This document shows, in pieces, positions 26,051-45,660 of a stretch of 64,000 bases of DNA. A model generated the notes under the pieces. It saw only the letters and a list, made by a program, of their open reading frames with translations, was not told where the DNA came from and ran no database searches. This stretch comes from Patescibacteria group bacterium (GTDB taxonomy: Bacteria > Patescibacteriota > Patescibacteriia > JAHJFT01). Numbering within the stretch: the first letter of the stretch is position 1; every line of letters begins with the position of its first letter. A program made the position numbers and the translations under genes. The stretch spans positions 19,280 through 83,279 of the forward strand of contig JAQTTB010000001.1 of the NCBI GenBank assembly GCA_028710985.1, read 5' to 3'.

Positions 26051-26054
26051 ATAA

Positions 26055-28913: not shown

Positions 28914-28919
28914 AGATAC

Positions 28920-29327
28920 TTAATTCTCTTTAAAGCAAAAAACGAATCTTTTATTAATTAAAAATGTAAAAAAGGACATTAATAATCCGACCAGGGCAAC
29001 GGATAAAAGGTAATAAAAACCTAAAATAGTTGTTAGCAAATAGACCAAAGTGAAGGTAATTAATCCTATTGCGCCATATATCGCGAGATAACCAAGGTAC
29101 CTTGCAACATAACCTGATTTTCCATGACCAGAAAATGTAAATAATGAATTCATTATAAAACTAAAAGTCCAGGTAATAAAAGTTGCGATTACAAAAGATA
29201 ACATGTACCAAAAATGCAGTGATTCAGTAAAAATGAAAGTTAATAATAAATTCAACAAAAAAGAACTGACTCCAATGATGAAAAATATCGGATATCTCCT
29301 AAAGATATTTATTATATTCAAAGCCAT
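28920..29327 (-). CDS. GtrA family membrane protein
   Basis: Four hydrophobic helices. The start is chosen at MALNIINIF (29327) to avoid a 53-nt overlap with the upstream gene. The ORF track start is 29399. Confidence 0.55.
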   Translation of the reverse strand: MALNIINIFRRYPIFFIIGVSSFLLNLLLTFIFTESLHFWYMLSFVIATFITWTFSFIMNSLFTFSGHGKSGYVARYLGYLAIYGAIGLITFTLVYLLTTILGFYYLLSVALVGLLMSFFTFLINKRFVFCFKEN

Positions 29328-29346
29328 CTTGAAAAAATTAATAAAG

Positions 29347-30783
29347 TCACGCTTCAACAATTTTCTTTTTACGACCTCCGAATTTCCATGAATTGCCATT
29401 TCTCATCTGAATATAAATTGAATTCAAATCAATTTCTGAATTACTTCTCAACCATCGTTCGATAAGATCCCTTGATAAATATGTAGTTGTTGGCGTTACC
29501 AATTGGTCAAAAACAATGTGGTGAAAAAAAATAAAGTTCTCCTCGGAAATCCAAACGGTATATTGATATAATGGTAATTTTTTTACAAAAGAAATACTTT
29601 TAAGTATATTGATTATTTTAGAGTAAAGAAAAAATAAAATAGCCAATGGGCCAGCGATAAAATATTTATTTAACCACCATGGTGTATGACAAACAATGCG
29701 ACGAAGTCGATCGATGACGTTTATTATTATCCAATTGCCTTCTTCCGCATAAACCCAGCAATGAAAACGACCGCCGGGTATAGTATTTTTAATTACAAAA
29801 TTAAAACCCAACTCCGGCTCCTTTAAATGATGGAGAACGCCAATACAATAAACAACATCGAACCCACCTTCGCTGAATTGTAAAATATCATCCTGAATAA
29901 TCCTATATTTTGTATTTTTGATATCTTCTAAATTTTTTCTCGCCGAATCGACGGAAGCACCTAAGTCAACCCCAACCATTTCACGCGGCTGCCAATTTGC
30001 TAAATGCACCATCAGGCTGCCATTGCCGCAGCCGAGCTCTAATATTTTATTTCCAGAAAAATCATTCTTGGTCAGTGGATGCATCCAATCCTCGAACTGT
30101 TTAAATGTATATATTGAACCAGCGACCAGATGATTCCACGATTTGGCAAATGCATCTGCCGTACCCTGATCCGGACTAGCAATAGCTTCATTCAGCTCCT
30201 TGGAGTGTGATTTTACACAAACGAATTCAAACGAAATCTCATCAAATCCCCCAACCCAAAAGCACCATATTCTGCTGCAAAAAACCTGGTTAAAATTAGC
30301 TAAACCGCTAATAAATTTATCTACTATTTTCAGTAGTTGCGTGGAAATTTCGCCATAACCCAAATATTGCAATAAATGCGGAAAAGCCATCCACCGCAGT
30401 TCCATTCTTTTCAGCCTAAATTCGACGCCGATATATCCAGATGAAGTATACTTTTCATTAAAGTAAAGGGGGAAAGCAACATCAAAACCGTGTGCATGTT
30501 GAGCGTGCGTAAAGCCGCGAGAAAAATGCGGCACTTTCAATTTTAAAATGCCGCCGTCTCTTAAAATTCTGTGCATCTCTTTCATCACCTCGAACGGTTT
30601 ATCGAGATGCTCCAAAACATGATAAGCCTCAATCAAATCAAAGCTATTCGATTCAAATGGATAAGGCAAACTGTTCAGGTCATGGATAACATCCGGTGAA
30701 ACTAACGGATTGATGTCAACATTGATATAATCGCTCTTTTTTGACGCACCGCATCCTAAATTTAATTTGTTCGTACTTTTCAT
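29347..30783 (-). CDS. tandem dual-domain SAM-dependent methyltransferase
   Basis: Two SAM motifs: LNLGCGASKK and ILELGCGNGSLMVHL. 478 aa. Confidence 0.65.
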   Translation of the reverse strand: MKSTNKLNLGCGASKKSDYINVDINPLVSPDVIHDLNSLPYPFESNSFDLIEAYHVLEHLDKPFEVMKEMHRILRDGGILKLKVPHFSRGFTHAQHAHGFDVAFPLYFNEKYTSSGYIGVEFRLKRMELRWMAFPHLLQYLGYGEISTQLLKIVDKFISGLANFNQVFCSRIWCFWVGGFDEISFEFVCVKSHSKELNEAIASPDQGTADAFAKSWNHLVAGSIYTFKQFEDWMHPLTKNDFSGNKILELGCGNGSLMVHLANWQPREMVGVDLGASVDSARKNLEDIKNTKYRIIQDDILQFSEGGFDVVYCIGVLHHLKEPELGFNFVIKNTIPGGRFHCWVYAEEGNWIIINVIDRLRRIVCHTPWWLNKYFIAGPLAILFFLYSKIINILKSISFVKKLPLYQYTVWISEENFIFFHHIVFDQLVTPTTTYLSRDLIERWLRSNSEIDLNSIYIQMRNGNSWKFGGRKKKIVEA

Positions 30784-30800
30784 AACTGGATTTAAAATGT

Positions 30801-31754
30801 CTAAAAATTAATTTTAGATTTTAAAACGTACGGTTTCTCCCCTCGCGATTCATAATAAGTGCGCATGATCAATTCCGCTAAAACACCCATGGCGATAAGC
30901 TGTATGCCGACAATGATAAATAAAGCAGTCAATATCGGCAATGGAGTCTCCACGAAACTTCTTAATCCAAAAATTTTAAGCACAATCGCAGATAGGCCGG
31001 CCATAATCCCGACAAAAAGCGCGATAAACCCCATCCCTCCAAAAAAATGCATCGGCTTATTCAAATACTTTTCAAAAAATTTTATAACTACCAAATCCAG
31101 TAAAACTCTAAAAATTCTAGATAAACCATAATTGCTCCGACCGGCTTTTCTTGGACGATAGTTTACCTCCACTTCTGTCAGATTAGCGCCTTGGCGTACG
31201 GCATAAGCCGGTATAAACCGATGCATTTCTCCATAGAGGGAAAACCCGTGTAATATTTTTTTTCTATATGCCTTCAATGTGCATCCATAGTCATGCAACT
31301 TAACATTAGTAATTCTTGAAATCAACCAGTTCGCCATGAGGGAGGGCAGTCTACGACTTAATTTATTCTTTTGCCAACGCCCGCGACGCCACCCGGAAAC
31401 AACGTCATACCCGTTATTAATACGCTCCAAGAGCCTTGGAATATCGGCCGGGTCATTTTCTAAATCACTATCCATGGTCACGATTATATCACTGCTCGCA
31501 TATTCAATCCCGGCTTGAAGCGCGGCGGTTTGTCCGCGATTTACCGCAAAACTTAAAACCTTAATTTTATTATTATCGCCCGCTAGTGATTTTAACACGG
31601 CCAAAGAATTGTCGCTCGACCCATCGTCAACCAGAATTATTTCATAATCATAACTATTCCTCTCCATTACGGACACGATCTCTCGGACCAATTCCAATAA
31701 ATTTTTTTCCTCATTATAGACTGGTATAACAATCGATAAATGCATATTTCCCAT
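30801..31754 (-). CDS. glycosyltransferase family 2, GtrB/ArnC-like polyprenyl-phosphate sugar synthase
   Basis: LSIVIPVYNEEKNLLELV...LVDDGSSDNS...MDSDLEND plus two C-terminal TM helices. Confidence 0.8.
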   Translation of the reverse strand: MGNMHLSIVIPVYNEEKNLLELVREIVSVMERNSYDYEIILVDDGSSDNSLAVLKSLAGDNNKIKVLSFAVNRGQTAALQAGIEYASSDIIVTMDSDLENDPADIPRLLERINNGYDVVSGWRRGRWQKNKLSRRLPSLMANWLISRITNVKLHDYGCTLKAYRKKILHGFSLYGEMHRFIPAYAVRQGANLTEVEVNYRPRKAGRSNYGLSRIFRVLLDLVVIKFFEKYLNKPMHFFGGMGFIALFVGIMAGLSAIVLKIFGLRSFVETPLPILTALFIIVGIQLIAMGVLAELIMRTYYESRGEKPYVLKSKINF

Positions 31755-33418
31755 TAAAATTTAATTAAAACAAAATATTCATTTTGCGATATGGGAAGAT
31801 CCCCTTGATCCCCTTCTTTCACCACTCCGGCTAACGCTGAGTTCGAACGCAATAGCGCATAATTTGCCCCATATTTACGACCAAAATCTATCAACTTAAC
31901 GATATCGTCACCGTGTAGGGCATTGTTTTGTTCTTCAAATACTCTGCGCCATTCTACCAATTGATTCTTGCCCGACATTAAATATGCGGATCCCTCTTCA
32001 AAGGAAGTAACTATATTAACCCTGCAGAAATAACGCAAATTAAAATCATTACTAATCACGGTATCCCCGTCGCCGACACCGCCGTTTTTAAGTTGCTGGC
32101 AAACTATATTATATATCTTTTCCTGGTCTTCAAACACCTTATTTTGAAATACCCTGGGTATATATTCCTCCTGATAATTCTCATAACCTAATAAAAATTG
32201 AAACCATTCGAAGCCAAAGGAGGAGCTCAAAAAGCCCAAAATGAGCAGGGCGGATAAGAAAATTACTCGAACTTTTTTTTGTAAAAAATATCTATTGCGT
32301 CTAAATAATTCTTCCAGTGAAACAGCCACTAATAAAAATATACCAAAGTAAACAAATTTAAAAAATCGACTAGTTTGCTGAAAAATAAACGGACCATCCA
32401 AATGGATCATCGCTATTTGTAGTATTGGAAAAAATACACTAAAAAATATTGAGAGCAGTATAAATAAAATTGACCACTTTGCGATAAGATAATCCAAGGA
32501 TTCTTTTATGATTAACCTCTTTTTCAAGAGGTACAAAACATATGCAACGAATGGCGCAAAGAAAACAAGAATAATTATCATATGCCGTATCCACATAAGG
32601 CTCTCCGGCGGATAATCCCATGGCGTCCTAAAAATTATCGCTTCCAAGAAGTCTAAGCTTGAGTATTCAACATTAGATAAAAATTTGGAATTTATTGCAT
32701 CTAAACGAAAAATTATTTCATACAACAGCAAGGATGAACCAAGAATAAATGCAGCTGACGCTGATGCGGTCTGTTTCAAAACACCAAAAAAATTATTGCG
32801 CCAAAATAAAAGAAATAAAGATATTACGAGAGCTAGAAAAGTAAAAAATAATATGCTTACCGGATGAATATAAGAGACTATACCGAGCAATAAGAACAAC
32901 GGCCAAATTTTCTTATTGTCGTAAATAAATTTAATAATTAATGCACCGATTATCCATAAGAATGGCATCGCCGTCGAACGTCCCAAAACTTCATAATTCG
33001 TGAGAACTCCGAATATTTCGTTCCCGACCGAAAAGCGCGGGGCAAGGGCTACTATAGCTACAACGATCGCGATTGAACGCCGTATGCCCAATATTCTAAG
33101 CGCAATATACGCCGAATAACCAGTAAAAAAAACCATAGAAAATAATAGTATATTGCGGCTGGTAAATGGATCAAAGAAATAACTCAACGCATTAATAATA
33201 TATGGATAAACGTAGTATCGATACGTCATCGTGGACAATAATTCATTTCCTGGATAAGAACTATCCATTAAAGCCCGGTTAGACGCCATAATGGCAATCT
33301 CATCGCCATTGAGTCTAAACGGCAGGGAAAAATTATAAACAACCGACAGAGCGGCAATAAACAAAAAAATCAATATTACACATAAATTGACGATTCCAAC
33401 ATTTTTACGCTCTGACAT
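31754..33418 (-). CDS. polytopic membrane protein, GT-C-like (GtrC/YfhO-like), directly downstream of a GtrB-like GT2
   Basis: About 400 aa of TM helices plus a roughly 150-aa soluble C-terminal domain. Start/stop overlap with the GT2 at 30801..31754. Confidence 0.5.
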   Translation of the reverse strand: MSERKNVGIVNLCVILIFLFIAALSVVYNFSLPFRLNGDEIAIMASNRALMDSSYPGNELLSTMTYRYYVYPYIINALSYFFDPFTSRNILLFSMVFFTGYSAYIALRILGIRRSIAIVVAIVALAPRFSVGNEIFGVLTNYEVLGRSTAMPFLWIIGALIIKFIYDNKKIWPLFLLLGIVSYIHPVSILFFTFLALVISLFLLFWRNNFFGVLKQTASASAAFILGSSLLLYEIIFRLDAINSKFLSNVEYSSLDFLEAIIFRTPWDYPPESLMWIRHMIIILVFFAPFVAYVLYLLKKRLIIKESLDYLIAKWSILFILLSIFFSVFFPILQIAMIHLDGPFIFQQTSRFFKFVYFGIFLLVAVSLEELFRRNRYFLQKKVRVIFLSALLILGFLSSSFGFEWFQFLLGYENYQEEYIPRVFQNKVFEDQEKIYNIVCQQLKNGGVGDGDTVISNDFNLRYFCRVNIVTSFEEGSAYLMSGKNQLVEWRRVFEEQNNALHGDDIVKLIDFGRKYGANYALLRSNSALAGVVKEGDQGDLPISQNEYFVLIKF

Positions 33419-33430
33419 ATTTTATGAAAA

Positions 33431-34159
33431 TTATTTTCTACATATCGCCATCAACGAAACGCCGAATGGAAAATTAAAACGCTTCAATACAAACGCTTCC
33501 AGGGAAAACACCCAAAATAATATACGAGATAAGGGGCCGCCGCTGCCGACAAATTCGATTTTCTTAACAGAAAAAAAAGCTTTTTCGAAAAAACGGAAAA
33601 ATAATATTGGCAAAAATAAAATGGTATTAAAATACGAAGAACGTACAACGTGCAAACCCAAACTCCGTAATTTTACAAAAATTTGATTGTAGGTATAACG
33701 GCGAAAATGATGTCCCGCCTCATCGGCCCAGCCCCACAAAAAATTAAAAGCAGGAACAAAAATAATAATTATTCCTTCTTTTTTTACTACACGTTTCAAT
33801 TCACTAATAGCTTTATTATCATCAGACACGTGTTCTAATACATCGAGGCAAATCACAACATCAAAAAAATTATCTGGAAATTGAATATTCGTAATATCTC
33901 CCAAATCGACATTCTCTAAAAAATTTTGTTTACAAAAATTAACGGCCAACGGGCTATTATCAACGCCATAACAAACACCGAATTTTTTGAGCTCCTTCAT
34001 CAGCATACCCGTGCCACAACCGACATCGAGCATCTTCAATGCACCACTATGGTCAGAAAAAAAATTACTGATTATATCAGCTACAATTCTTCGCCTCACC
34101 CTATACCACCAATTATCTTTTTCAGCTGTATAAATTAATTTATAGACGTCAGATCGCAT
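33431..34159 (-). CDS. class I SAM-dependent methyltransferase
   Basis: MLDVGCGTGMLMKEL SAM motif. Confidence 0.7.
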   Translation of the reverse strand: MRSDVYKLIYTAEKDNWWYRVRRRIVADIISNFFSDHSGALKMLDVGCGTGMLMKELKKFGVCYGVDNSPLAVNFCKQNFLENVDLGDITNIQFPDNFFDVVICLDVLEHVSDDNKAISELKRVVKKEGIIIIFVPAFNFLWGWADEAGHHFRRYTYNQIFVKLRSLGLHVVRSSYFNTILFLPILFFRFFEKAFFSVKKIEFVGSGGPLSRILFWVFSLEAFVLKRFNFPFGVSLMAICRK

Positions 34160-34166
34160 AACTTTA

Positions 34167-35237
34167 TTAAATATTCTTATCTGGATAAAAATTATCCATC
34201 AAACGCTCAATTAAAAAATCCAAACTATGCTCGCGGATTATAATTTCTCTCAATCCCTTGCCTAACGCCACCCGCCTGTCTACATCCATAGTCAATAAAT
34301 TTATCAATTTATTCTTAAAATCATTCACGTCATCCTCCTCAAAAACCATCGGCTCAGGCAAAACATCCTTTAGCGCCCTATTTGATACCAGCACCGGCAT
34401 TTCACAGGCCATGGCTTCAAAAATTGTCTTATCCATGCTCCCGCTCTGTGTAAAATTAACATAAAGCGCGTGTTGGTTATAAATGTTCGATGTCTCACGA
34501 TATGGCACGCCAGGATAAAAAGAAAGCATTCCTGCGCCCTCCAGCTCCTTGCCCGCTCCCCTGACTCTTTGATAATATTCCGCATCGGAATCGGTCGGAT
34601 CGCCATAGATACTCGCCGTAAAGCCAATTCCTTGGCCATGCAGATCAGACAAAGCGTTAACAAACATTTCGACTTTCTTAACTGGCGATATTCTCCCCAG
34701 AAACAATACGGATTTTTCATATTTCGCCGATGGATCGAAACCTTTAAATATATCTGTGTCGATCCCAACGGGCATAATCCTTGCTTTTTTATACCGCGAG
34801 CAAAACGAATTTGGTGAAGTGTAGAATACGTTATTGGAAAATAAGACGCCAAACCTAGTTATGATATTACCAATCTTGTGATTGTGCCATAGAAAAATTT
34901 TTTTATTAAAAATTCTCCACAATATACCGGCCATAACAATATATTCCGGATTCATATGGACAAAAATAACGTCGTAATCCCTAATTAGAAAAATAATATT
35001 TTTATAAAATTCGATAATATAGCCAACCCGACTCTTCCTTTTTTCCTTTTCCAGGGATATAACTCGCACATTGTTTGGCAAATTATATTTTCCTGACTCT
35101 AGACAAACTACGTTAACAGTATCAAACGATGGGCTAATCTTCATAATCCAGTTATGAAAAAATCCAAGCACTTTATCGTCCCTGTCAACCTTCTGAGTAA
35201 TAATTAGCAGATTTATTTTTTTATCGCCTTGTCCCAT
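34167..35237 (-). CDS. glycosyltransferase (GT-B fold, GT4-like)
   Basis: C-terminal GSMDKTIFEAMACEMPVLVS motif. Confidence 0.65.
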   Translation of the reverse strand: MGQGDKKINLLIITQKVDRDDKVLGFFHNWIMKISPSFDTVNVVCLESGKYNLPNNVRVISLEKEKRKSRVGYIIEFYKNIIFLIRDYDVIFVHMNPEYIVMAGILWRIFNKKIFLWHNHKIGNIITRFGVLFSNNVFYTSPNSFCSRYKKARIMPVGIDTDIFKGFDPSAKYEKSVLFLGRISPVKKVEMFVNALSDLHGQGIGFTASIYGDPTDSDAEYYQRVRGAGKELEGAGMLSFYPGVPYRETSNIYNQHALYVNFTQSGSMDKTIFEAMACEMPVLVSNRALKDVLPEPMVFEEDDVNDFKNKLINLLTMDVDRRVALGKGLREIIIREHSLDFLIERLMDNFYPDKNI

Positions 35238-36337
35238 GTTTCGTTATAAAGTTTTAATGTCGCCTCCTTGCCCGGAAGTCGCTCTAACGCGTTCTTGGCA
35301 TTTTGACTAAACTTCATTTTTAATTCAGGGTTATTCTTTACTTTGACCAATGCGTCAGAAATCGCACTTATATTATTTACCGGGACCACGATACCATTCT
35401 CATAGTTTTTTACCACCTCTCCGGCGCAACCGACGTCGGTCATGATAACTGCGCAGCTGCAAGCCAGGGATTCAATAGCCACCCTGCTCCATCCTTCGTA
35501 TTCAGAGGTCAATAAAACACAATCCGCTCCCTTAAAAAAACTCACAACGTCCTGGGTCCAGGGAATGAAAATCACCGATTCACCCAAGCCCAATTCGCCT
35601 ACCAATCTTTTTAATTCTTTTTCCTGACTCCCCTCGCCAACAATGAGCAAGCCGCTCTTAGGACTTTTTTTTAAGAACATTAAAAATGCTTTTAAGGCAA
35701 CGTCTATTCTTTTTACCCTCTCCAATCGCCCCATAACCAGAGCGATAAAATCAAATTGTGAATATTTTTCCTTTAGATTAAAATCCGGCTCCTTTAATTC
35801 CAGACTTTTCCAAGGTGTGCAAATCGGCAGAACCGTTATCTTTTCTTGATTAATCCCTCTCTTGATTAAGTCCCGCTTGATTCTCTGACTAACCGCTCTG
35901 ATAGAATCGGCCTTTTTTATAATTCCCAAGCCAAGATACCATCGTAGATTGTTCAAAAAATTTTCTCCGCGCCAATGAGGATTACTAAAAAAATCGCCAT
36001 GGAGTTGAATATTCAAACCTAAACCGAATTTTCTTTTAGCGAAATATCCGATTAACCCGATGGCAAACGGGTCTTGAACCGAAACGACATTAATATTGCT
36101 GCGCTTAATAATGCTGGCTGCTTCCCTCCACAATTTTAACCAGCCAAAAAATTTATTATTAACTCCCACGGATCGTACGAATACGTTGTCGGTTAATTGT
36201 ATATTCGTGCTACAACCAGCCGGCAGCAAAATATAAAATTTATTACCAATAAAATTGGCGTAACTCTTAAATCTCTCCTGTGTCTCGCTACCCGACTTTA
36301 AAATTCTTGCATCGGTGCCAATTATCAAAATGTTCAT
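35213..36337 (-). CDS. glycosyltransferase family 4
   Basis: C-terminal EYEGWSRVAIESLACSCAVIMTDVG motif. Confidence 0.75.
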   Translation of the reverse strand: MNILIIGTDARILKSGSETQERFKSYANFIGNKFYILLPAGCSTNIQLTDNVFVRSVGVNNKFFGWLKLWREAASIIKRSNINVVSVQDPFAIGLIGYFAKRKFGLGLNIQLHGDFFSNPHWRGENFLNNLRWYLGLGIIKKADSIRAVSQRIKRDLIKRGINQEKITVLPICTPWKSLELKEPDFNLKEKYSQFDFIALVMGRLERVKRIDVALKAFLMFLKKSPKSGLLIVGEGSQEKELKRLVGELGLGESVIFIPWTQDVVSFFKGADCVLLTSEYEGWSRVAIESLACSCAVIMTDVGCAGEVVKNYENGIVVPVNNISAISDALVKVKNNPELKMKFSQNAKNALERLPGKEATLKLYNETWDKAIKK

Positions 36338-37338
36338 TTCAGCTTCAAATTAATTGCTTTAATTATCGGCTTATTGGCAATGCTGCAGTTTTTGCATACC
36401 GGCAATTCCTGCTCAATGACTGCTCTTCTGATTTTTGCGTATTTATCGCTCTGCCAAATTTTATTAAAACTTCTTTCTTCAAAAACATTACCAACCACGA
36501 TGCTCCCCTCAAGATCGGTGCAGCATACACCCACATCACCGTTCCAAAGTATCACACTGCGCCAAATCCAGGGGCATGTCTTTGGCTTATCTATATTCAC
36601 GAGTCTACCCTCCTTCAGGCGATAGCGACTATTTTTTAAATCCGTTGGCAGAAACTCCAAGGCATTTGCTAGAAGCTTTTCCTGAAGTTCGGCCGTTGAC
36701 CCGATATTGAAAGAAGCGCTTTTAAACCACAGGGCGTCAACTCCGAGCTTGCGGCCCAAATCCTCAATCGCTCCCATCTCACGCTCATTGAACTTCATTA
36801 CCAAGAATTGAATAATAATCCTTGTCTTGCGGTTTTTGATGCCCGCTATCTGCCGCAGGGTTCCAACTATTTTATTAAAATCGCTATTGACACGATATTT
36901 CTGCTGCGTCTCGGCCGATGCTCCGTCCATGGCAAAAATCAAATTATCAATTCCATAGCCGACCGCCTCGCGATACCTTTCAACCGGCATGGTCCCATTA
37001 GTACTAACTGTCAATATATAACCGTGGTCTTTGAGATACTTCACCATCGCCGGAAACTCAGGATTGGCGAATGATTCGCCGGAAAAGTGCAAAGTAATTT
37101 TTTTGATGCTCCTGGGCAAATAACTTTCTATTTCCTCGAGCTGTTTCAAGGTTAAAAATCCTCTCGGCTTGGTTGACGTTCTCTGAATGCAAAACGGACA
37201 ACGCAAATTACAAAAACTCGAGGCCTCAATAATTATTTCTTTAAGCGGCCTAACCCTCCGAATCCAGGCATCTGGAAGCAATAACAGCGCTCTGTTGAAC
37301 AGAGTCGATTTACTTATTTTATCTTTCAGCCAATACAT
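36334..37338 (-). CDS. radical SAM protein with C-terminal SPASM/twitch Cys cluster
   Basis: CNLRCPFC (CxxxCxxC) near the N-terminus. C-terminal CPWIW...CCTDLEG...CKNC cysteine cluster. Confidence 0.75.
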   Translation of the reverse strand: MYWLKDKISKSTLFNRALLLLPDAWIRRVRPLKEIIIEASSFCNLRCPFCIQRTSTKPRGFLTLKQLEEIESYLPRSIKKITLHFSGESFANPEFPAMVKYLKDHGYILTVSTNGTMPVERYREAVGYGIDNLIFAMDGASAETQQKYRVNSDFNKIVGTLRQIAGIKNRKTRIIIQFLVMKFNEREMGAIEDLGRKLGVDALWFKSASFNIGSTAELQEKLLANALEFLPTDLKNSRYRLKEGRLVNIDKPKTCPWIWRSVILWNGDVGVCCTDLEGSIVVGNVFEERSFNKIWQSDKYAKIRRAVIEQELPVCKNCSIANKPIIKAINLKLK

Positions 37339-38449
37339 ATCGTTTTATTATATTCAGGGTATCGGTCGCCGTATCTTTCCACGTGCGGTTTAATTCACCT
37401 TCTTTTATATCTGGACAAATTCTTTCATAATCAGATTCCTCGGCCAAACGAGCAATGTCTTTTTTTATTTCTTCGCGATCCATTGGATTAGTCAAAGTGG
37501 ATCTACCTTCAAAAATTTCTTCCATACCATTATCCCTGGTAATAATCAGGGGTTTCCCGAGTTTCATGCATTCCATGCCAAAATTCGGGCTGATTTCCGA
37601 AAACGAAGGCAGGATGCAGGCATAGGCCAATTTTATCCTTTCAATAACCCCTTGATGCGGAATGCCGTCAAATATTTTTATATATTCATCTGACCGGCTC
37701 TCTCGAACAATTCGTTTTAAATTATCTTTTTCGGGACCATCGCCATAAACACTCAAAAAAATCTTTTTTCCCTCGGTACGAAGCTCGACAAAAATTTTAA
37801 TTAAATCAGCCAGATTTTTTAATTTTATCAATCTGCCAGCAAATAAAAATATTTTATCCGGTTCAGCGTAACTCAATGACTGCCCTTTTAAAATCTGAGG
37901 GAATGGATTTAAAATAACGCTGCTCTTGGCCTCAATGAAAGGAAATACTTTCAAATAAATATTTCTCTGAAAATCGGTAGAAAAAATAATATGGGAACTG
38001 CGTGTTAAAACCAATTTAATAAGACGAAAGGCCATGCCACGCGTATATAAGTTTCTGCCGTAATATTCCGATAGCGTAACCCTTTGGCCGGATTCAGCCG
38101 CTTTCTCCCAAAGATAATCTCCACCGAGACGCAAAAATATTTTTTTTCTTAAATATACATTGGCAATTGCGGTTGGCAAACCAGCGCTCAATATATCAAA
38201 TGTATAAATGAGATCCGCCTTTCGTCCGTGTCGCAAGACATTAATAAAAAAGGTGAAATATCTAATATAAACACACGGCTTTCTTGAAACACCGTGGATT
38301 CTCATCCCCTCCACCGCATTTGGCTGGCCATATGTAATTATTTCGATCTCATGGCCTAATTTTTTTAGCTCCGCAGATAAATTTTCTACATACGTTGCTG
38401 GCCCGCCAATATCCGGTGGAAATATGCCCGTTGTGATCAATATCTTCAT
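37319..38449 (-). CDS. glycosyltransferase family 4
   Basis: N-terminal MKILITTGIFPPDIGGPATYVENL. C-terminal ISPNFGMECMKLGKPLI. Confidence 0.75.
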   Translation of the reverse strand: MKILITTGIFPPDIGGPATYVENLSAELKKLGHEIEIITYGQPNAVEGMRIHGVSRKPCVYIRYFTFFINVLRHGRKADLIYTFDILSAGLPTAIANVYLRKKIFLRLGGDYLWEKAAESGQRVTLSEYYGRNLYTRGMAFRLIKLVLTRSSHIIFSTDFQRNIYLKVFPFIEAKSSVILNPFPQILKGQSLSYAEPDKIFLFAGRLIKLKNLADLIKIFVELRTEGKKIFLSVYGDGPEKDNLKRIVRESRSDEYIKIFDGIPHQGVIERIKLAYACILPSFSEISPNFGMECMKLGKPLIITRDNGMEEIFEGRSTLTNPMDREEIKKDIARLAEESDYERICPDIKEGELNRTWKDTATDTLNIIKRYVLAER

Positions 38450-39558
38450 TTTAAATATTTATCATATTCCCCGCTCACTTGCCGAACAACCTTATCCCAG
38501 TTGAATCTTCCCAACCCCTGAAAAGCATTATTTCTTAATCGTTCGCGCAGTTCCTGGTCGCTAAGAAGACGCTTTATGGCCGCAGCGATGGCTTCCGAAT
38601 CTCGCGGCGCAATTAAAAGCCCGGTTTGATTATCGGAAATAACATCCGGAATTCCGCCGACTCGCGTTCCTATAACTGGCGCCCCGCACGCCTGGGCTTC
38701 AATAAAGACAATACCTAAACCCTCAGCGAGCGATGGACAAATAAATATTTGAGCCTTGCCCATCTCCCTAAGTGTCTCTTCGTGCGGCAGTTTACCCAAG
38801 AGCGTAACCCTGCTCCCCAAATTCAATTCCTTTATCATCCGCTCAATTTCCTGTCTTTTATTTCCCTCCCCAACCATAACCAAATGAGCATTGGGAAATT
38901 CTTGAAAAACCGAGGGCAACGATTTTATTAAATAATCCAATCCTTTTTCCCAGGAGAGTCGCGCCACGCAGACGATTCTTCCCGGGATCGGTTCGGCCTG
39001 ACTTTGTTTTGCCAGCTCAAGGTCAACCCCATTCGGAATAATTACAACCTTGCCCTGATCGGTCCTCAATTTCTTCGCGCGTTCAGCAAGCGACGAGCTA
39101 ATCGCAGTTACAAGATCGGGCGTAGAGTGAATTCTTTTCCAAAGAAATGCGGGAATTTTCTTGCTCGGATCGTCCAGATCGCCGCTTTGTAAAGTCAGGA
39201 TTGTTGTAATTTTTTTATTAAAAATTGAAAAAAGCCACAACGCGATGCCGGCATAGCTCTCCATAACTGCATGAACCAAGTCCGGCTTTAATTTTTTGGC
39301 TAAAATTACAGCAAAAATCGGATACAGCCATTTATCAAAAGAACTGCCGATTCCAACGCGGTAGTACTTAAACTTGTCCCGCTGTTCAAATTTTGGCAGT
39401 TTCTTATCTAATCGAGCGCTGATGATTGTAAAATCATATTCTCCAGCCAGCCGTTCAACCACTTCTTTCACAAACATCTCCGCACCGCTGATAAATGGGT
39501 CGTAAAAGCAAGAAAAAATTACAATTTTTTTTTGTCCATTCATTCTATAAAAAATCAC
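38446..39558 (-). CDS. glycosyltransferase family 4
   Basis: C-terminal LAEGLGIVFIEAQACGAPVIGTRVGGIPDVI GT4 motif. Confidence 0.75.
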   Translation of the reverse strand: MIFYRMNGQKKIVIFSCFYDPFISGAEMFVKEVVERLAGEYDFTIISARLDKKLPKFEQRDKFKYYRVGIGSSFDKWLYPIFAVILAKKLKPDLVHAVMESYAGIALWLFSIFNKKITTILTLQSGDLDDPSKKIPAFLWKRIHSTPDLVTAISSSLAERAKKLRTDQGKVVIIPNGVDLELAKQSQAEPIPGRIVCVARLSWEKGLDYLIKSLPSVFQEFPNAHLVMVGEGNKRQEIERMIKELNLGSRVTLLGKLPHEETLREMGKAQIFICPSLAEGLGIVFIEAQACGAPVIGTRVGGIPDVISDNQTGLLIAPRDSEAIAAAIKRLLSDQELRERLRNNAFQGLGRFNWDKVVRQVSGEYDKYLK

Positions 39559-40265
39559 TTAATTACTTTTTCCTGAATTGAACTATATTGACTACTCTTC
39601 AAAGCCTCCAGCCCCTTCATTTCGTTCTCCAGTCTTTTTATCATTTCCGGATGGGCATAGGCCTTATCAATTAACTCTTTCCATCGAGGCTCCTGCTCGA
39701 TTAATACATCTTCCGCGGAAATGAAATCCACGTCGACATCGCTATATATTGGATTGTCTTTCTGAAACTTTTTACAAAAAGCTTCCGATCTCGGAACATG
39801 ATAAGCATTCGTAACGATTAAAATATGGTTCCAAAAATTTTCCTTTGCTATCCTGAATAGTTCTTCAAAATTCTGCTTGGTATTTTTGGAAACTTTTTCA
39901 ACAAAAATCGATTCTTCCGGTATTCCTCTTCCCACTAACTCTTTTTTCATCAACTCACTTTCCTCCGGCGTCTCCGGTGGCTCGCTTTCAAGATAGTTAG
40001 GCTTTCCAGTGACAGTCAAAACGTTCTTTGCCGTGTCGCCCTTTTTAAAGAGATACTCCGTGGCAATAACTCTAATCCGGCCACCTAAGGCGCCGAATGC
40101 ATCGCCTTCGGAATAGGCCGTCGTGCGCCATCCGAATTTTTCATGCTTTCTCATTGCGCCACTCAACGTGATAATGGCGTCATAGCGATATTTATTTTCC
40201 TTTTCAACGTTAGTCTCATCAAATATTTCGCCGGTCACCGATGAGACTCCTTCGGATAATGGCAT
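39555..40265 (-). CDS. hypothetical protein, possibly DUF218/YdcF-like
   Basis: IITLSGAM...GRIRV pattern. Weak call. First gene after the epimerase in the long minus-strand operon. Confidence 0.4.
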   Translation of the reverse strand: MPLSEGVSSVTGEIFDETNVEKENKYRYDAIITLSGAMRKHEKFGWRTTAYSEGDAFGALGGRIRVIATEYLFKKGDTAKNVLTVTGKPNYLESEPPETPEESELMKKELVGRGIPEESIFVEKVSKNTKQNFEELFRIAKENFWNHILIVTNAYHVPRSEAFCKKFQKDNPIYSDVDVDFISAEDVLIEQEPRWKELIDKAYAHPEMIKRLENEMKGLEALKSSQYSSIQEKVIK

Positions 40266-40267
40266 AT

Positions 40268-41254
40268 CTATGTTGCCGAATTATTATAGATACTTTTATA
40301 CCACTCATAAGTACGCCGCAATCCTTCGTCCAGTCCGACTTGCGGCAAGAAATCCAAAAGTTCCTTCATGCGCGTTACATCCGGACAGCGATAACGGATA
40401 TCAGCCCTTTTTCCTTCAACGAACACGGGTTGAAGATCTTCACGGCCCGAAATTTTGATAATCTTTTCCGCCAAATCCAATATCGTGGTCTGCCGACCCA
40501 TTCCAATATTTATAACCTGACCATTTGTCTTTTCCGTAAGAAGCGCCCGAACTTGTGATTCAATATTATCATCAATATAAATAAAATCACGCGTCATCAT
40601 ACCATCACCATAAACTGTGGGCGATTTACCATCCAAAACCTGACGGATAAACACTCCGGTTACAAATCCATAGGCCGAGGACTCTTGGCGCGGTCCGTAA
40701 ACATTAAAGAAGCGCAGGGCTGTGGCCGGCAGATTAAACTTATCGTTATATCCTAAAAACATATTCTCACCAATTAGCTTGGTCAATGCGTAAGTATCGC
40801 GCGAACGCGGATTATGCACTCCGTCCTCTTTCTCCGGCAAAGTCACCGGCTCACCATAAGCTTCGGATGACGATGAAAAAACAATCTTCTTAACACCCTT
40901 AATGAGCGACAACTCCAAAATATTTTTATATCCATCGATATCACGAAGCGGCAAAAGCGGATTTTCTTGAACTCGCTTCACTCCGACCACGGCTGCTAAA
41001 TGAAAAACATAATCAATCGGATTCATCAAAAAAACATCCCTGAGTTCTTCGTAGACGCAAACATCGCCTTCAATGAATTTAAAATTCGGATTTTCGCGAA
41101 AACTAGAAAAATTTTCCAGTTTGCCCGTGCTCAAATCGTCAATAACTATTACCTTAGCTCCTTCACGGAGCAAGCGATCCGTCAAGTGTGAACCCACGAA
41201 CCCGGCCCCGCCGGTCACAAGAACACTCTTGTCTTTTAGTTGAGAATAGTCCAT
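40268..41254 (-). CDS. NAD-dependent epimerase/dehydratase, UDP-glucuronate decarboxylase (UXS)-like
   Basis: SVLVTGGAGFVGSHLTDRLL Rossmann motif. 328 aa. Confidence 0.8.
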   Translation of the reverse strand: MDYSQLKDKSVLVTGGAGFVGSHLTDRLLREGAKVIVIDDLSTGKLENFSSFRENPNFKFIEGDVCVYEELRDVFLMNPIDYVFHLAAVVGVKRVQENPLLPLRDIDGYKNILELSLIKGVKKIVFSSSSEAYGEPVTLPEKEDGVHNPRSRDTYALTKLIGENMFLGYNDKFNLPATALRFFNVYGPRQESSAYGFVTGVFIRQVLDGKSPTVYGDGMMTRDFIYIDDNIESQVRALLTEKTNGQVINIGMGRQTTILDLAEKIIKISGREDLQPVFVEGKRADIRYRCPDVTRMKELLDFLPQVGLDEGLRRTYEWYKSIYNNSAT

Positions 41255-41308
41255 ATTTTGAGTAGAATTAGCTGTTTTATTGACTTGAAATTAATATAAC
41301 ATTAGACT

Positions 41309-41337
41309 ATTATATATATATTGAGTATAATCGTCAA
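41309..41337 (-). promoter_or_regulatory. sigma70-type promoter TTGACG-N17-TATAAT (minus strand) for the ~25-kb minus-strand glycosylation operon
   Basis: Minus strand reads TTGACG attatactcaatatata TATAAT. The -35 is at 41337..41332 and the -10 at 41314..41309. About 55 nt upstream of the epimerase ATG at 41254. Confidence 0.5.
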
Positions 41338-41396
41338 GAACGAATTTTTGGCTATATCAAGAGAAAAAACAAAAAAAAGAAATAGAGAAAAAGACT

Positions 41397-41789
41397 ATGG
41401 GCGAAACTATCAAATCATTTGAGGACTTGCTCGTTTGGCAAGAGTCGCACAAGCTCATGATTGACGCTTATGGGTTCGCGGACCGCTATTTGCCGCCGGA
41501 AGAAAAATACAATCGCATTTCTCAAATAAAACGCTGTTCAAGCTCAATCCCTGCCAATATCGCCGAAGGTTATGGTCGATTTCATTTCTTGGAAAATATC
41601 CAATATTGCCGGCAAGCCCGAGGTTCACTTGATGAACTTAAAAACCACATCATCGCCGCCCGAGACCTAAAGCAGGCTCCTCCGGAAGAATGTGCCAAAT
41701 TTATCCAAAAATGCAATTATGTACGGGCTATCCTAAATAACTACATTAACAAAACTCATGATCTCTATATTGAAAATAAGCAAAAATAG
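41397..41789 (+). CDS. four-helix-bundle protein (23S rRNA intervening-sequence protein family)
   Basis: LLVWQESHKLMIDAYGF...IPANIAEGYGRF is a conserved signature of this family. 130 aa. Confidence 0.7.
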   Translation: MGETIKSFEDLLVWQESHKLMIDAYGFADRYLPPEEKYNRISQIKRCSSSIPANIAEGYGRFHFLENIQYCRQARGSLDELKNHIIAARDLKQAPPEECAKFIQKCNYVRAILNNYINKTHDLYIENKQK

Positions 41790-41854
41790 TATATCACCCG
41801 TTTGACCACATTTTTCTTCTTTTCTCTTTTTCCTTATTTCTCAATACAACCCTC

Positions 41855-43021
41855 ATGCCACCAAATTCCCCAAAAAAGAAATTATTGCATCTCATTACTC
41901 AACCAACGTGGGGCGGCGCCCAGCGCTATATTTTTGATTTGGCCTCAAGCCTCAAGGACGAATTCGACATCACGGTCGCGTCCGGCCCGCTTCGCCAAAG
42001 CGAAAGCGAGGCGAGCGAAATTAAGGATGGCCGCGAGCTCCTTGACCGTCTTGAGGCCCAGGGCATAAAGACACGTGTTTTCCCTCACCTTATCCGTGCC
42101 ATCAATCCAATAAGAGATTTGCAGGCTTTTATACAAATCTTCGTATATCTATACGCCAATAAATTCGATACCATCCACTTAAATAGCAGCAAAGCCGGCG
42201 TCCTCGGCTCCATCGCCGCTAATATTCAGTCGGTTCCGAAAATAATTTATACCGCACATGGCTGGGTTTTTAATGAACCCATGCCAACCTGGAAAAAGAG
42301 ATTCTATAAATGGGCCGAACGCCTGAGCGCCAAACATAAAACAAAGATTGTCACCCTTTCCCGTTTAGAAACCGAGATCGGGGTACTTGAGCGCATTGCG
42401 CCGGCTGAAAAATTTGTACAAATCTATCACGGCGTAAAACCGATTGAATTTCTTTCATCCGATCAGGCCCGCGACGAACTAAAAATACCGCGCCAGATTC
42501 CGGTAATCGGTTGCATTGCCAATTTTTATGAAACCAAGGGCCTGGAATATATCGTCAAAGCCTGGCCGCAAATCATCGCCGCAATTCCTGACGCCCAGCT
42601 CGTGATTATCGGCGATGGCGCGCTTCGAAAAAAACTTGAATCGCTGATTAAAAAATTAAATCTTGATGAAAACATTGCGCTTGCCGGCTCCCGGCCCGAT
42701 GCTTCAAAATATTTAAAAGCTTTTGATGTTTTCGCGCTCCCGTCGGTTAAAGAAGGCCTTCCCTACGTGATTCTTGAGGCCATGCAAGCCGGTGTTCCGA
42801 TCGTGGCGACGCGCGTCGGCGGCATTCCAGAGATGATTGAGGACGGCGCAAGCGGCCGGCTCGTCCCGCCGGCTGATTCGGCCGCCCTTGCAACCGCGAT
42901 TATAAAAATTCTGCAAAACAAAAATCTCGGCGAGTCATACGCCGAGAACGCGCGCCAAACGCTGACGCAAAAATTCAGCTTTGAAAGAATGATCGAACAA
43001 ACCCGATCGTTATACAACTGA
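41855..43021 (+). CDS. glycosyltransferase family 4
   Basis: HLITQPTWGGAQRYIFD N-terminus. VKEGLPYVILEAMQAGVPIVATRVGGIPEMI GT4 motif. Confidence 0.8.
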   Translation: MPPNSPKKKLLHLITQPTWGGAQRYIFDLASSLKDEFDITVASGPLRQSESEASEIKDGRELLDRLEAQGIKTRVFPHLIRAINPIRDLQAFIQIFVYLYANKFDTIHLNSSKAGVLGSIAANIQSVPKIIYTAHGWVFNEPMPTWKKRFYKWAERLSAKHKTKIVTLSRLETEIGVLERIAPAEKFVQIYHGVKPIEFLSSDQARDELKIPRQIPVIGCIANFYETKGLEYIVKAWPQIIAAIPDAQLVIIGDGALRKKLESLIKKLNLDENIALAGSRPDASKYLKAFDVFALPSVKEGLPYVILEAMQAGVPIVATRVGGIPEMIEDGASGRLVPPADSAALATAIIKILQNKNLGESYAENARQTLTQKFSFERMIEQTRSLYN

Positions 43022-43023
43022 GC

Positions 43024-43265
43024 ATCAATAAAATCCCTCTCTGCCTCTCCCTTCCTGCCTGCCGGCAGGCAGGTTGCATACTTTTGGTTACAAAAGTATG
43101 TCCTGCTGAAAGCAAACAAGAGTGGTGCTAGAAAAGATAATTATTGCCCAGACAGGTGGCAGGCAAGAACTTAAAAATCCCAATATTAAAACAACTTGTA
43201 CGATAATATATAATAGGATTCCCCCGGTACATTGAACCTGGATTCCCGCCTTCGCGGGAATGACA
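43024..43265. repeat. copy A of a ~215-240-bp intergenic repeat, containing the perfect palindrome CCTGCCTGCCGGCAGGCAGG, the hairpin CATACTTTTGgttaCAAAAGTATG, and a terminal REP-like palindrome (43240..43265)
   Basis: Near-identical to 56987..57199. The palindrome is at 43054..43073 and the hairpin at 43077..43100. Confidence 0.8.
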
Positions 43266-43369
43266 AAAGTAAGGCAGGAATGACAAATGGCGCTAAGATT
43301 TTTATAGCAAGATTCCCGCCGGAGCCTGCCCTCATGCAAATGGGGGGGGTGGCTAAAAATATCGTCAAC

Positions 43370-43412
43370 CAAAAAACCACTCCGACGTTACGTCGAAGTG
43401 GTTTTGAATTTT
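43370..43412 (-). terminator. rho-independent terminator for the Wzy_C/TPR gene (minus strand)
   Basis: Minus-strand transcript reads AAACCACTTCGACGtaaCGTCGGAGTGGTTTTTTGG. Confidence 0.6.
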
Positions 43413-43416
43413 AATC

Positions 43417-45660
43417 TTATTGCCCCGCCTTCGCTTCTTTCTCGTCAATCATTTTCAGAAACTCATCCGTATCCGCGGATATTGAGGGATCCAACTGTTT
43501 GGCAATATTCGCGTACAACCGCGCGAGCTCATACTCCCCGACTTCAAAATATGCCGCCGCAATACCGGCATATAACCGCGGATCGTTTTCATCAATATTG
43601 TCAATCGCAAAATTATAAAGTTCAATCACCCTCGGCATATTGCCGGCTTTAGCATTAAGTTCAACCATCGCCGCCACTTCCGGAAGATTTACCGGATGTC
43701 CGCCGATTGATGCCGATTTTTCAAATGCCTCAAGTGCTTTATCTTCCCACTCGGCCTCATAGTATGCAATACCTAAATTCCACCATGACTCCGTGACATT
43801 GGGATCGAGGTTCACTGTCTCCAGATAATACTGGACAGCCTCATCGGTGCGGCCAAGATTCAAGAGCGCCTTACCGCGCACAAAACGCAACTGCTGACGA
43901 TCGGGAGAATACCTTAGCGCCTCATCAATGTCCGCGAGCGCCTGTTCATGGTGCGTCGGATCAATCTTACCAAGCTCGAGCTGAATCAAGCTCATGAGAT
44001 AATAATTATATATATTCATGGGATGAAGCGGCACAGTTGCCTTTAGCGCATCGTATGATCGCTCAAGATACTCAGCGAGCTCATCGCTTGGCATTTGCAT
44101 TGAGCGGCTAATTTGCGCCATCTCTCGGCTATAGTAAAGAGGAACCAAATCCGGATATTGGTTTGAGATAGCCATGCCTTTTTCAAATGCTGCGGCCGAA
44201 CCTTTATAATCCCCTGCCTGTGACGCAATCACTCCGCTCCGCACCCAGGTGGAAGCAAACGCGGTCCGAAAAGTAAATAAATACAAAACCGCAAACGAAA
44301 AAATTATCAAGACCGCGAGCCACGCTCCGGCAACGGCTGGAGTATTGATAAACAATCTTCCCTCTTTTTTCGGTTCGGTTGTCTCGCTCTGCCACCAGGC
44401 CAGGCAGAAATAAAACATAATCAATGCATTCGGCTGGTCAAAGATAAAAAGATTTTGCACGAAATATCCGATCAGAATTCCAATTGAGCCGCAATAAATA
44501 TGGGTATCGATTTTACCGCCCTTGAAGGCTTTGGTGAGCTGAATGATTATGAGAGCGAATAAGGCGAGATATGCCGCCGTACCGACCACGCCCGTATTAT
44601 TCAGCATATCCATCATCTGGTTATGCGCATGGTCAAACCATGTTTCGTAGAACGAAAACTCCAGTGACTTTGGATTGTAGTATTTATTGAAAGTATAAAA
44701 ATAATTTTCCGGACCCCAACCAAAAACCGGACGCTCCAAGAATCCCTTCCACGCGATTTCCCAAGCAATAAAGCGCGTCGCCGCCGTGCCACCGGTTAAC
44801 GAAATATCTCGGAAGCGATTGAGGCCGGGAACCTGCGCGGTCCAGGCCTGATCTTTAATCAGCCAAAATCCAGCCGACGCAAGGATTATTGCCAAAAATA
44901 TACCCGCGGAAATTATGCGGATCTTTTTATTATTTTTAAGTATTGCGTAAAGCGCGAGATACACGAGCCCGGCGAGAAAAACTCCAACCATTGCGCCGCG
45001 TGTTTCGGCGAAAAGAAAAGCCAAGAACTGTATTGCGAGCATGGCTCCCCACATTGCCTTGGTTGACCACCGCACGGCTTTTTGCAGAAGAACGAGCGTA
45101 ATGAACATAGTGAAAATCAAATACGCAGCCAAGAAAATCGGATTATTCATAAACGCGCCGGTACGAGCGCCGGTTTGCAGCACCAATTCCGGCGCCACGC
45201 GCTGGATAAAAGCGACAAACGACAGCGCCACGCTCACACCCACATTGAAAATTAAAACTTTTTTCCATTCGCGCCAGCCGCGGAAAACCGAAATTGCCAT
45301 AAAATAAAACAGGAGATAATGGAGAAGCGGCCAAAAACCGGTCATACGTTCGTGATAACTCCAGAAGCTGCGATTCGAATCAACGCCAAAAATCACGGCT
45401 AAAAAAAGTCCGATGAAATACGCCGCAAGCCCGTACATAATAAGCGACCGCCGCGGCCGGTATTCCGGCTTGCGCGCGAGAAGATATATATACCACGGCA
45501 ACGCGCTCATGAGCACGATCATAAGATAGACCGTCTTGCCAAAAATATACGGGTAAACCGTCCATGGCAAAAAAATAAACGGCATCACGAGAGCCGCATA
45601 TACGCTAATTTTTACCCACCAATATGCGATGCGGTCCATTGTTTCAAGATTGTTATTCAT
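43417..45660 (-). CDS. O-antigen ligase (Wzy_C) family membrane protein with C-terminal TPR repeats, a candidate O-oligosaccharyltransferase (PglL/WsaB-like)
   Basis: About 12 TM helices with a large extracytoplasmic loop, typical of Wzy_C. The C-terminal roughly 250 aa contain TPR-like repeats (AYYEAEWEDKALEAFEKS, GRTDEAVQYYLETVNLDP). Confidence 0.65.
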   Translation of the reverse strand: MNNNLETMDRIAYWWVKISVYAALVMPFIFLPWTVYPYIFGKTVYLMIVLMSALPWYIYLLARKPEYRPRRSLIMYGLAAYFIGLFLAVIFGVDSNRSFWSYHERMTGFWPLLHYLLFYFMAISVFRGWREWKKVLIFNVGVSVALSFVAFIQRVAPELVLQTGARTGAFMNNPIFLAAYLIFTMFITLVLLQKAVRWSTKAMWGAMLAIQFLAFLFAETRGAMVGVFLAGLVYLALYAILKNNKKIRIISAGIFLAIILASAGFWLIKDQAWTAQVPGLNRFRDISLTGGTAATRFIAWEIAWKGFLERPVFGWGPENYFYTFNKYYNPKSLEFSFYETWFDHAHNQMMDMLNNTGVVGTAAYLALFALIIIQLTKAFKGGKIDTHIYCGSIGILIGYFVQNLFIFDQPNALIMFYFCLAWWQSETTEPKKEGRLFINTPAVAGAWLAVLIIFSFAVLYLFTFRTAFASTWVRSGVIASQAGDYKGSAAAFEKGMAISNQYPDLVPLYYSREMAQISRSMQMPSDELAEYLERSYDALKATVPLHPMNIYNYYLMSLIQLELGKIDPTHHEQALADIDEALRYSPDRQQLRFVRGKALLNLGRTDEAVQYYLETVNLDPNVTESWWNLGIAYYEAEWEDKALEAFEKSASIGGHPVNLPEVAAMVELNAKAGNMPRVIELYNFAIDNIDENDPRLYAGIAAAYFEVGEYELARLYANIAKQLDPSISADTDEFLKMIDEKEAKAGQ

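Follow-up and report, generated by a model that had tools for sequence, protein, structure and literature searches.

A Twitch-domain radical SAM protein among glycosyltransferases in a patescibacterial surface-glycan locus

What does a radical S-adenosylmethionine (SAM) protein do between two glycosyltransferase genes in the surface-glycan operon of a Patescibacteria group bacterium? The question is raised by an open reading frame (ORF) at 36334..37338 on the minus strand of a 64,000-nucleotide stretch of contig JAQTTB010000001.1, the whole of which was analysed and is referred to here as the window. Translation from an ATG start gives a product of 334 amino acids, a 100% match to NCBI entry MDD4994897.1, which is encoded on a 744,538-bp contig of a Patescibacteria group metagenome-assembled genome. 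Judged by its sequence, the product is a Twitch radical SAM protein of the BtrN type, for which a single auxiliary cluster is predicted and which has one cysteine to spare. We consider it highly probable that this Twitch protein works in glycan biosynthesis together with glycosyltransferases (GTs), and we think that its substrate is probably a glycan or a sugar, not a protein or a lipid. The balance tips slightly towards an enzyme that tailors sugars or glycans, with epimerisation as its favoured yet unproven chemistry.

The radical SAM and Twitch domains

The protein matches two Pfam families well above their cut-offs: Radical_SAM (PF04055) at residues 39-176 (E = 2.7e-16, 60.6 bits versus a cut-off of 29.5) and SPASM at residues 255-318 (E = 1.2e-13, 51.6 bits versus 21.5). 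Its CX3CX2C motif, CNLRCPFC (C43, C47 and C50; residues 43-50, positions 37189-37212, minus strand), is the predicted site of the SAM-cleaving [4Fe-4S] cluster and is unchanged in all 125 aligned homologues. Translation and Pfam together bear out the reading frame, the motif and the cysteine-rich C terminus that a preliminary description of the window had picked out. The start codon is backed by the conserved N terminus of the homologues, where M1 is invariant and K5 nearly invariant in an alignment of a closer homologue set. Pfam and an AlphaFold (AF2) model of the protein (pLDDT 93, pTM 0.92) place the beginning of the radical SAM core near residue 35, preceded by three short helices; by the same two measures, the N terminus holds no RRE, the recognition element of RiPPs (peptides made on the ribosome and modified afterwards).

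The preliminary description had also spoken of a SPASM/Twitch-type domain with auxiliary clusters. An auxiliary Fe-S domain is present and is of the Twitch kind, but a SPASM domain with two clusters is not what we find. SPASM is defined by a seven-cysteine motif, CX9-15GX4C-gap-CX2CX5CX3C-gap-C, that carries two clusters, and Twitch is its truncated, one-cluster form (PMC6231123; PMC9012708). In place of seven C-terminal cysteines the protein has five, arranged as C255-x11-G-x4-C272-C273-x41-C315-x2-C318 (36385..36576, minus strand), and the CX5CX3C...C half of the motif is missing. All five are invariant in the 125 aligned homologues, and the 16 residues that follow C318 up to the end of the chain include no other cysteine. 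Residues 239-316 of the AF2 model form hairpin strands with subsequent helices, as in a Twitch domain.

From this pattern we predict that C255, C272, C315 and C318 would be the ligands of a single, fully ligated auxiliary [4Fe-4S] cluster. Cys273 would then be surplus to cluster ligation, and is a candidate hydrogen-atom donor. The dipeptide that it forms with C272 (36520..36525, minus strand) belongs to a family signature, G-x4-CC. Of 276 family proteins collected, 270 display the Twitch pattern; the CC motif is found in 266 of these, and 253 have no cysteine past the CxxC, so that the family is not expected to hold a second auxiliary cluster.

Comparison with enzymes of solved structure identifies BtrN as the closest relative, on the strength of profile and model searches. 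When a profile of the 125 homologues was compared with PDB sequences, BtrN was matched at E = 1.2e-31, SkfB at 4.8e-20 and BlsE at 5.4e-19, and Foldseek ordered the relatives of the model as BtrN, then BlsE, SuiB and DesII. A profile of the hairpin only recovered BtrN (E = 7e-9) and no other radical SAM enzyme, the rest being chance matches (E >= 0.024, retinol-binding proteins). In the hidden Markov model (HMM) alignment, C255, C272, C315 and C318 fall on the four cysteines of the BtrN Twitch segment, which fully ligate the auxiliary cluster of that enzyme (PMC6231123), and C273 falls on a phenylalanine. In the BtrN type of Twitch domain, one of the four precedes the beta-hairpin, one follows it and two come after helix alpha2'. 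BtrN is the 2-deoxy-scyllo-inosamine (DOIA) dehydrogenase of butirosin biosynthesis (PDB 4M7T/4M7S); it likewise consists of a radical SAM core followed by a Twitch domain, lacks an RRE and acts on a sugar-like polyol. The two proteins differ in length (334 residues compared with a tagged chain of 270), ours having three additional helices at the N terminus and more linker ahead of the hairpin, and in setting, a surface-glycan operon with family 4 glycosyltransferase (GT4) genes as opposed to an aminoglycoside cluster. With 18-22% identity and a Wzx/Wzy locus that has no aminoglycoside genes, we rejected the idea that the protein is a BtrN orthologue.

A second group of relevant enzymes is that of the Twitch epimerases EpeE/YydG, HygY, NeoN and AviX12, which combine one auxiliary cluster with a catalytic free cysteine. 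The family described here has exactly one conserved cysteine beyond those predicted to bind the cluster, and it adjoins an auxiliary-cluster ligand. In EpeE, the hydrogen atom is returned by a free cysteine that neighbours the auxiliary cluster and lies across from SAM, and the cluster is proposed to re-reduce the resulting thiyl radical (PMC13012085; PMC8326336). NeoN uses Cys249 in sugar epimerisation (PMC10991966), AviX12 is a further sugar epimerase precedent (PMC10991966; PMC8326336), and mutation of one cysteine turns HygY from an epimerase into a dehydrogenase, according to a report cited in PMC10991966. The substrate of EpeE is a peptide, and this enzyme stands further from our protein than BtrN does; the hairpin-only profile gave no EpeE match, and Cys273 is only a possible counterpart of EpeE Cys223. 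HygY, NeoN and AviX12 are likened to our protein by their published descriptions, not by sequence. By analogy, the protein may work like the BtrN/HygY/NeoN group of sugar-modifying Twitch enzymes while being an orthologue of none of them.

Other known enzymes share parts of this architecture. BlsE, a cytosylglucuronate decarboxylase, and DesII, a TDP-4-amino-4,6-dideoxyglucose deaminase, match the radical SAM core only (query residues 38-219 and 32-201, respectively), and neither fits the Twitch cysteine pattern seen in our family. The SPASM maturases anSME, PqqE, SuiB and CteB have in common with the protein the Pfam SPASM match and the CX9-15GX4C...CX2C part, but our protein is without the CX5CX3C...C half, the second auxiliary cluster and the RRE. 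In anSME, the position next to the GX4C ligand is taken by Asp277, a proposed catalytic base, a point on which no argument is built here. Calditol synthase (Cds, Saci_1489) resembles it by description, not by sequence, in its pathway logic of GT first and radical SAM enzyme afterwards: its proposed role is to rebuild a glycosyl group that a GT has put in place (PMC13459092). It differs in acting on an archaeal lipid head group and in its proposed ring contraction.

Classification against curated models led to no established family. Among the best 25 of 39 NCBIfam matches, no model reaches its cut-off and none is for PqqE. The best match, to the tungsten-cofactor oxidoreductase maturase TIGR04317, spans the full length but scores 114 bits where the cut-off is 380; MoaA (TIGR02666) scores 34.5 against 284, mycofactocin MftC 42 against 265 and AhbD 42 against 500. 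A housekeeping identity of the MoaA or PqqE type, which the preliminary description had named as the result that would speak against its proposal, is thus not what the models indicate, and the auxiliary cysteines themselves follow the BtrN-type Twitch pattern. Two further identities were rejected: a RiPP-maturing SPASM enzyme, for want of an RRE and a precursor gene, and a C-methyltransferase, since the protein has no B12-binding domain.

The link to glycosyltransferases

The gene lies directly between an upstream GT4 gene (37319..38449, minus strand; 376 amino acids) and a downstream one (35213..36337, minus strand; 374 amino acids), both of which match Pfam Glycos_transf_1 and Glyco_transf_4. 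The stop codon of the upstream gene (TAA, 37321-37319) lies 20 nt within the radical SAM ORF, and the sequence ATGA at 36337-36334 is common to the radical SAM stop and the start of the downstream gene, an overlap of 4 nt. The overlap with GT4 genes on both sides in a glycosylation operon, as claimed at the outset, is therefore real. Successive junctions along the operon overlap by 4, 4, 20, 4 and 25 nt; since overlaps are the norm here, the coupling is genuine and not special to the radical SAM gene. As both of its junctions overlap, there is no intergenic room for a precursor peptide gene.

The association with GTs is conserved, as seen in orthologous gene order, in enrichment, in natural fusions and in extra copies within glycan clusters. 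In two related loci (L001 and L006) the gene directly upstream of the radical SAM orthologue is an orthologue of the upstream GT4 over its full length (37% identity; E = 1e-83 and 1e-89), and orthologues of the downstream GT4 (34-35% identity) stand directly downstream of it in two loci from Saccharibacteria (L007 and L008). Pairs of both kinds thus recur in further genomes of the candidate phyla radiation. BLASTP also finds full-length orthologues of the next GT4-type gene of the operon, 34167..35237, in L001 and L006 (32-34% identity), and L001 has a methyltransferase related to that at 33431..34159. A GT lies within three genes of the radical SAM gene in seven of the eight closest relatives.

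Across 67 loci, Pfam assigns 30 of 122 immediate neighbours to GTs (21 Glycos_transf_1 and 9 GT2). With iterated GT profiles the figure is 33 of 127 (26%), whereas GTs make up 61 of the 599 genes (10%) that lie 2-8 places away in these loci (Fisher p = 8e-6). These profiles and the Pfam counts replace less sensitive neighbour labels based on single-sequence phmmer searches. Together with the orthologous pairs and the fusions, this enrichment supports the co-occurrence with GT4 genes that had been put forward for checking.

Three natural fusions join the enzyme to another domain in a single chain, all of them with the CC signature. P0142, from Desulfovibrio desulfuricans (WP_192111531.1, 692 amino acids), combines Glycos_transf_1 with the radical SAM and Twitch domains and represents a cluster of 13 members, among which many are complete and several contigs are represented; P0215 carries a GT2 domain before the radical SAM and Twitch domains, and in P0167 these are followed by a methyltransferase. 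In two loci the glycan cluster encodes, only a few genes apart from the first, a second Twitch radical SAM copy, also with the CC motif (L001 15523-16560; L002 12968-14020), which suggests that there are several radical tailoring steps per glycan. Glycan clusters of CPR (candidate phyla radiation) and archaeal relatives also contain B12-binding radical SAM genes, sometimes directly upstream of the Twitch gene (L002 180-1664, 4792-6267 and 14022-15476; L007 3183-4625; L008 1503-2945; L041 6346-7899). Radical chemistry, probably C-methylation, looks recurrent in these loci.

The family is well defined and widely distributed. Among representatives of clusters formed at 50% identity, an exhaustive phmmer search returned 198 with E <= 1e-30 and 5,445 with E <= 1e-10. 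GTDB species genomes with members come from Nealsonbacteria, Saccharibacteria, DPANN and other archaea, Latescibacterota, Cloacimonadota, Bacteroidota, Gemmatimonadota, Planctomycetota and Desulfobacterota. Four members (P0232, P0246, P0261 and P0273) have N-terminal extensions of about 150-250 amino acids with no Pfam match, and a fifth, P0272, has tetratricopeptide (TPR) repeats.

The locus in the window is a Wzx/Wzy-type cell-surface glycan locus of about 38 kb (7109..45660, both strands), delimited by Pfam scans. Most of it is a long minus-strand operon (17286..41254) whose genes, by ORF list, Pfam and NCBIfam, run in the following order: a short-chain dehydrogenase/reductase (SDR) of the epimerase/dehydratase type, DUF218, two GT4 genes, the radical SAM gene, two further GT4 genes, a methyltransferase and a 554-residue membrane protein; then an ArnC-like GT2, a methyltransferase, GtrA, an AsnB-like amidotransferase, a methyltransferase, a GT2 and a 568-residue membrane protein; and finally a GT4, a methyltransferase, a polysaccharide deacetylase, a methyltransferase, a GT4 and a weak, partial match to CDP-alcohol phosphatidyltransferases. 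The overlapping gene string around the radical SAM gene includes, besides its two immediate neighbours, a GT4 of 370 amino acids (38446..39558, minus strand; Glycos_transf_1, 159 bits) and the GT4-type gene at 34167..35237 (minus strand, 356 amino acids), which overlaps the preceding gene by 25 nt. A class I SAM methyltransferase of 242 amino acids (33431..34159, minus strand; Methyltransf_11) belongs to the same module. The three GT4s nearest the radical SAM gene were also scored against TIGR04157 (glyco_rSAM_CFB), the model of GTs that partner radical SAM proteins in Bacteroidota, and were rejected as members at 46.5, 59.7 and 63.6 bits versus a cut-off of 400.

Outside the operon, Pfam recognises an initiating transferase of the Bac_transf family (13536-14993, plus strand), a Wzx flippase (16055-17308, plus strand) and a 747-residue Wzy_C/O-antigen-ligase protein with C-terminal TPR repeats (43417-45660, minus strand), along with two GT4 genes, a further GT4 at 41855-43021 (plus strand), two GT2 genes and SDRs. 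In total the locus holds nine genes of the GT4 type, four of GT2 (among the latter an ArnC-like one, close to GtrA and the 554-residue membrane protein), six methyltransferases, three SDR epimerase/dehydratases, and one each of AsnB-like amidotransferase, polysaccharide deacetylase and DUF218. Pfam scans found no sugar aminotransferase in the locus, nor did we find a B12-radical SAM gene there. A CX3CX2C scan of the long ORFs revealed no second radical SAM gene in the whole window; the only other occurrence of the motif, CYVKCLKC at about 26873, sits at the N terminus of a class I methyltransferase (26055-26981, minus strand). The core of the operon (16000-42000) is an island of low GC content, 0.35-0.42 compared with about 0.49 (0.48-0.52) in the flanks, which fits horizontally exchanged or diversifying surface-glycan genes.

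Several other features of the region were recorded. Two large ORFs of the operon have no Pfam match (31754-33418, minus strand, 554 amino acids; 23518-25224, minus strand, 568 amino acids). The first also lacks an NCBIfam match, is strongly hydrophobic and follows the ArnC-like GT2, with GtrA two genes further downstream; its product may be a GT-C-type transferase that works outside the membrane with a polyprenyl-phosphate sugar. Genes for AsnB-like glutamine amidotransferases are repeatedly found next to the Twitch radical SAM gene or close by, in the window (27081-28913, minus strand) and in L002, L022, L041, L067, L069, L073 and L076, and may indicate that these glycans also carry uronamides or similar amides. 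Between divergent genes at the operon's upstream end lies a 130-residue '23S rRNA-intervening sequence protein' (41397-41789, plus strand; PF05635, E = 2.8e-28). After the Wzy_C gene at 43417-45660 come, in turn, a gene for an S8 subtilase that has an FG-GAP repeat (45662-47620) and a 1,259-residue ORF without a Pfam match (47778-51557).

Possible chemistry and competing explanations

How might such an enzyme act on a glycan? In the scheme that we favour, the [4Fe-4S] cluster bound by the CX3CX2C motif would cleave SAM, and the 5'-deoxyadenosyl radical so formed would take a hydrogen atom from a sugar carbon. Given the gene order and the fusions, the target would most likely be the residue just added by the upstream GT4 to a lipid-linked oligosaccharide, before the downstream GT4 extends it. 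The single auxiliary cluster (C255, C272, C315 and C318) would lie behind the substrate. Cys273 would then give a hydrogen atom to the opposite face, resulting in epimerisation at an unactivated carbon, and the auxiliary cluster would re-reduce the Cys273 thiyl radical, as has been proposed for EpeE.

Epimerisation is a tentative choice, to which we give somewhat less than an even chance. It is favoured because one near-invariant surplus cysteine stands beside a cluster ligand, where the dehydrogenase BtrN has phenylalanine; because EpeE-type Twitch epimerases use such a cysteine, with NeoN, HygY and AviX12 as precedents on sugars; and because the window locus has no aminotransferase to make use of a keto product. 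Among the unusual sugar modifications suggested at the outset, it stays the best candidate, whereas two others have lost ground: C-methylation is unlikely in a protein without a B12-binding domain, the B12-radical SAM proteins of related loci being separate genes, and a DesII-like deamination finds no specific support, given that DesII matches the core only and that the window locus lacks a sugar aminotransferase.

Several considerations weigh against this interpretation. The chemistry is inferential throughout; Cys273 may or may not face the active site, and either C272 or C273 could be the cluster ligand. BtrN, the closest solved relative, is a dehydrogenase and not an epimerase, and DegT aminotransferases lie within three genes of the radical SAM gene in four loci of close orthologues (L001, L006, L009 and L010), which would suit a route of oxidation followed by transamination. 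Sequence-similarity clustering is a poor guide to function in this subfamily (PMC6231123). The link with GTs is not universal: a GT is adjacent in only 27 of the 67 loci, and glycan loci are rich in GTs in any case. In four loci from Cloacimonadota (Cloacimonadales; L016, L021, L023 and L030) the radical SAM gene lies 10-33 nt downstream of an ORF of about 1,300 amino acids on the same strand, with no GT nearby. Peptidase_C25 is also among the pooled Pfam families of immediate neighbours, with four members, a count that does not indicate which specific neighbour it is. The same pooled count includes three members of CarbopepD_reg_2.

The main rival to epimerisation is a BtrN-like oxidation, which we regard as unlikely although it deserves the most attention among the alternatives. 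Here the enzyme would be a sugar dehydrogenase comparable to BtrN and SpeY, in which the auxiliary cluster accepts an electron after hydrogen abstraction from a carbinol carbon, giving a keto-sugar on the glycan or on a precursor that an SDR could then reduce or an aminotransferase transaminate. The closeness to BtrN, by profile and by Foldseek, and the alignment of all four Twitch cysteines count in its favour; in BtrN, oxidation of the radical intermediate is attributed to the fully ligated auxiliary cluster (PMC6231123; PMC9012708). SDR enzymes are available in the window locus, and in L010 a GFO/IDH/MocA oxidoreductase gene is adjacent in addition to the nearby DegT. Yet the window locus has no aminotransferase, the DegT genes of related loci adjoin SDR dehydratases, which are their usual partners, and the near-invariant fifth cysteine would be left idle.

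A different kind of substrate has to be considered as well. Most SPASM/Twitch enzymes, anSME, SkfB and EpeE among them, modify a protein or a peptide, and the enzyme could in the same way mature a residue of a neighbouring GT or of the protein that accepts the glycan. The Pfam SPASM match, the likeness to the metalloenzyme maturase TIGR04317 as the best NCBIfam model, the Cloacimonadota members behind their long ORF and the Peptidase_C25 neighbours could all be taken in this sense, and even a GT fusion can be read as a maturase acting in cis. We nevertheless find it improbable: the protein has no RRE or other peptide-binding domain, the overlapping junctions on both sides leave no space for a precursor gene, the TIGR04317 score falls far below its cut-off, and BtrN, the best match, has a small-molecule substrate. 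The variety of partners (GT4, GT2, methyltransferase and AsnB) points to a pathway more than to one protein client. Action on a protein acceptor, which the preliminary description had entertained, is disfavoured for the first two of these reasons. Most improbable of all is that the enzyme modifies a polyprenyl carrier or a glycolipid head group, in the manner of calditol synthase or Tes/GDGT-MAS. It is to this idea that two metagenome contigs speak (L004 and L005, 10001-13139), where members of about 32% identity form a three-gene set with LPG_synthase_TM and a GT2/GT21-like gene; the set adjoins bshC, has no other glycan genes nearby and may be a glycolipid pathway. The radical SAM core also matches the tetraether synthase structures 7tol/7tom, calditol synthase offers a precedent for radical SAM chemistry on a glycosyl head group (PMC13459092), and the conserved basic N-terminal helices (residues 2-29) could conceivably sit on a membrane. 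The lipid synthase match, though, is confined to the common core, and in the window and the closest orthologues the gene stands inside a string of GT4 genes in a Wzx/Wzy locus.

Radical chemistry on surface glycans

The sugar-modifying radical SAM enzymes BtrN, SpeY, HygY, NeoN, AviX12, DesII and BlsE belong to antibiotic pathways, while the target of calditol synthase is the head group of a lipid. The limited library of literature that we searched yielded no characterisation of this family or of a radical SAM protein from a surface-polysaccharide cluster, and no description of such an enzyme on a cell-surface polysaccharide assembly line. In the window, a fold and a logic that are both known turn up in a new setting, together with a signature and GT fusions that are the family's own.

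It is possible, if doubtful as a complete statement, that the G-x4-CC proteins constitute a family of Twitch radical SAM glycan epimerases that invert unactivated sugar stereocentres after transfer to the lipid-linked oligosaccharide, between two GT steps, with our protein as the founding example. If this were true, anaerobes, among them CPR bacteria and DPANN archaea whose metabolism is minimal, could build rare sugars into the glycans of their surfaces and dispense with the corresponding nucleotide sugars, and in some lineages the glycan epimerase would be fused to its partner GT. The conserved three-gene module GT4-radical SAM-GT4 makes the question directly testable. Should the sugars of a growing glycan prove to be epimerised or oxidised by these enzymes, this would be a new type of glycan tailoring in anaerobes, and a source of new catalysts for glycoengineering. 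It would also help to account for the ways in which CPR and DPANN cells, with their reduced genomes, vary their surfaces.

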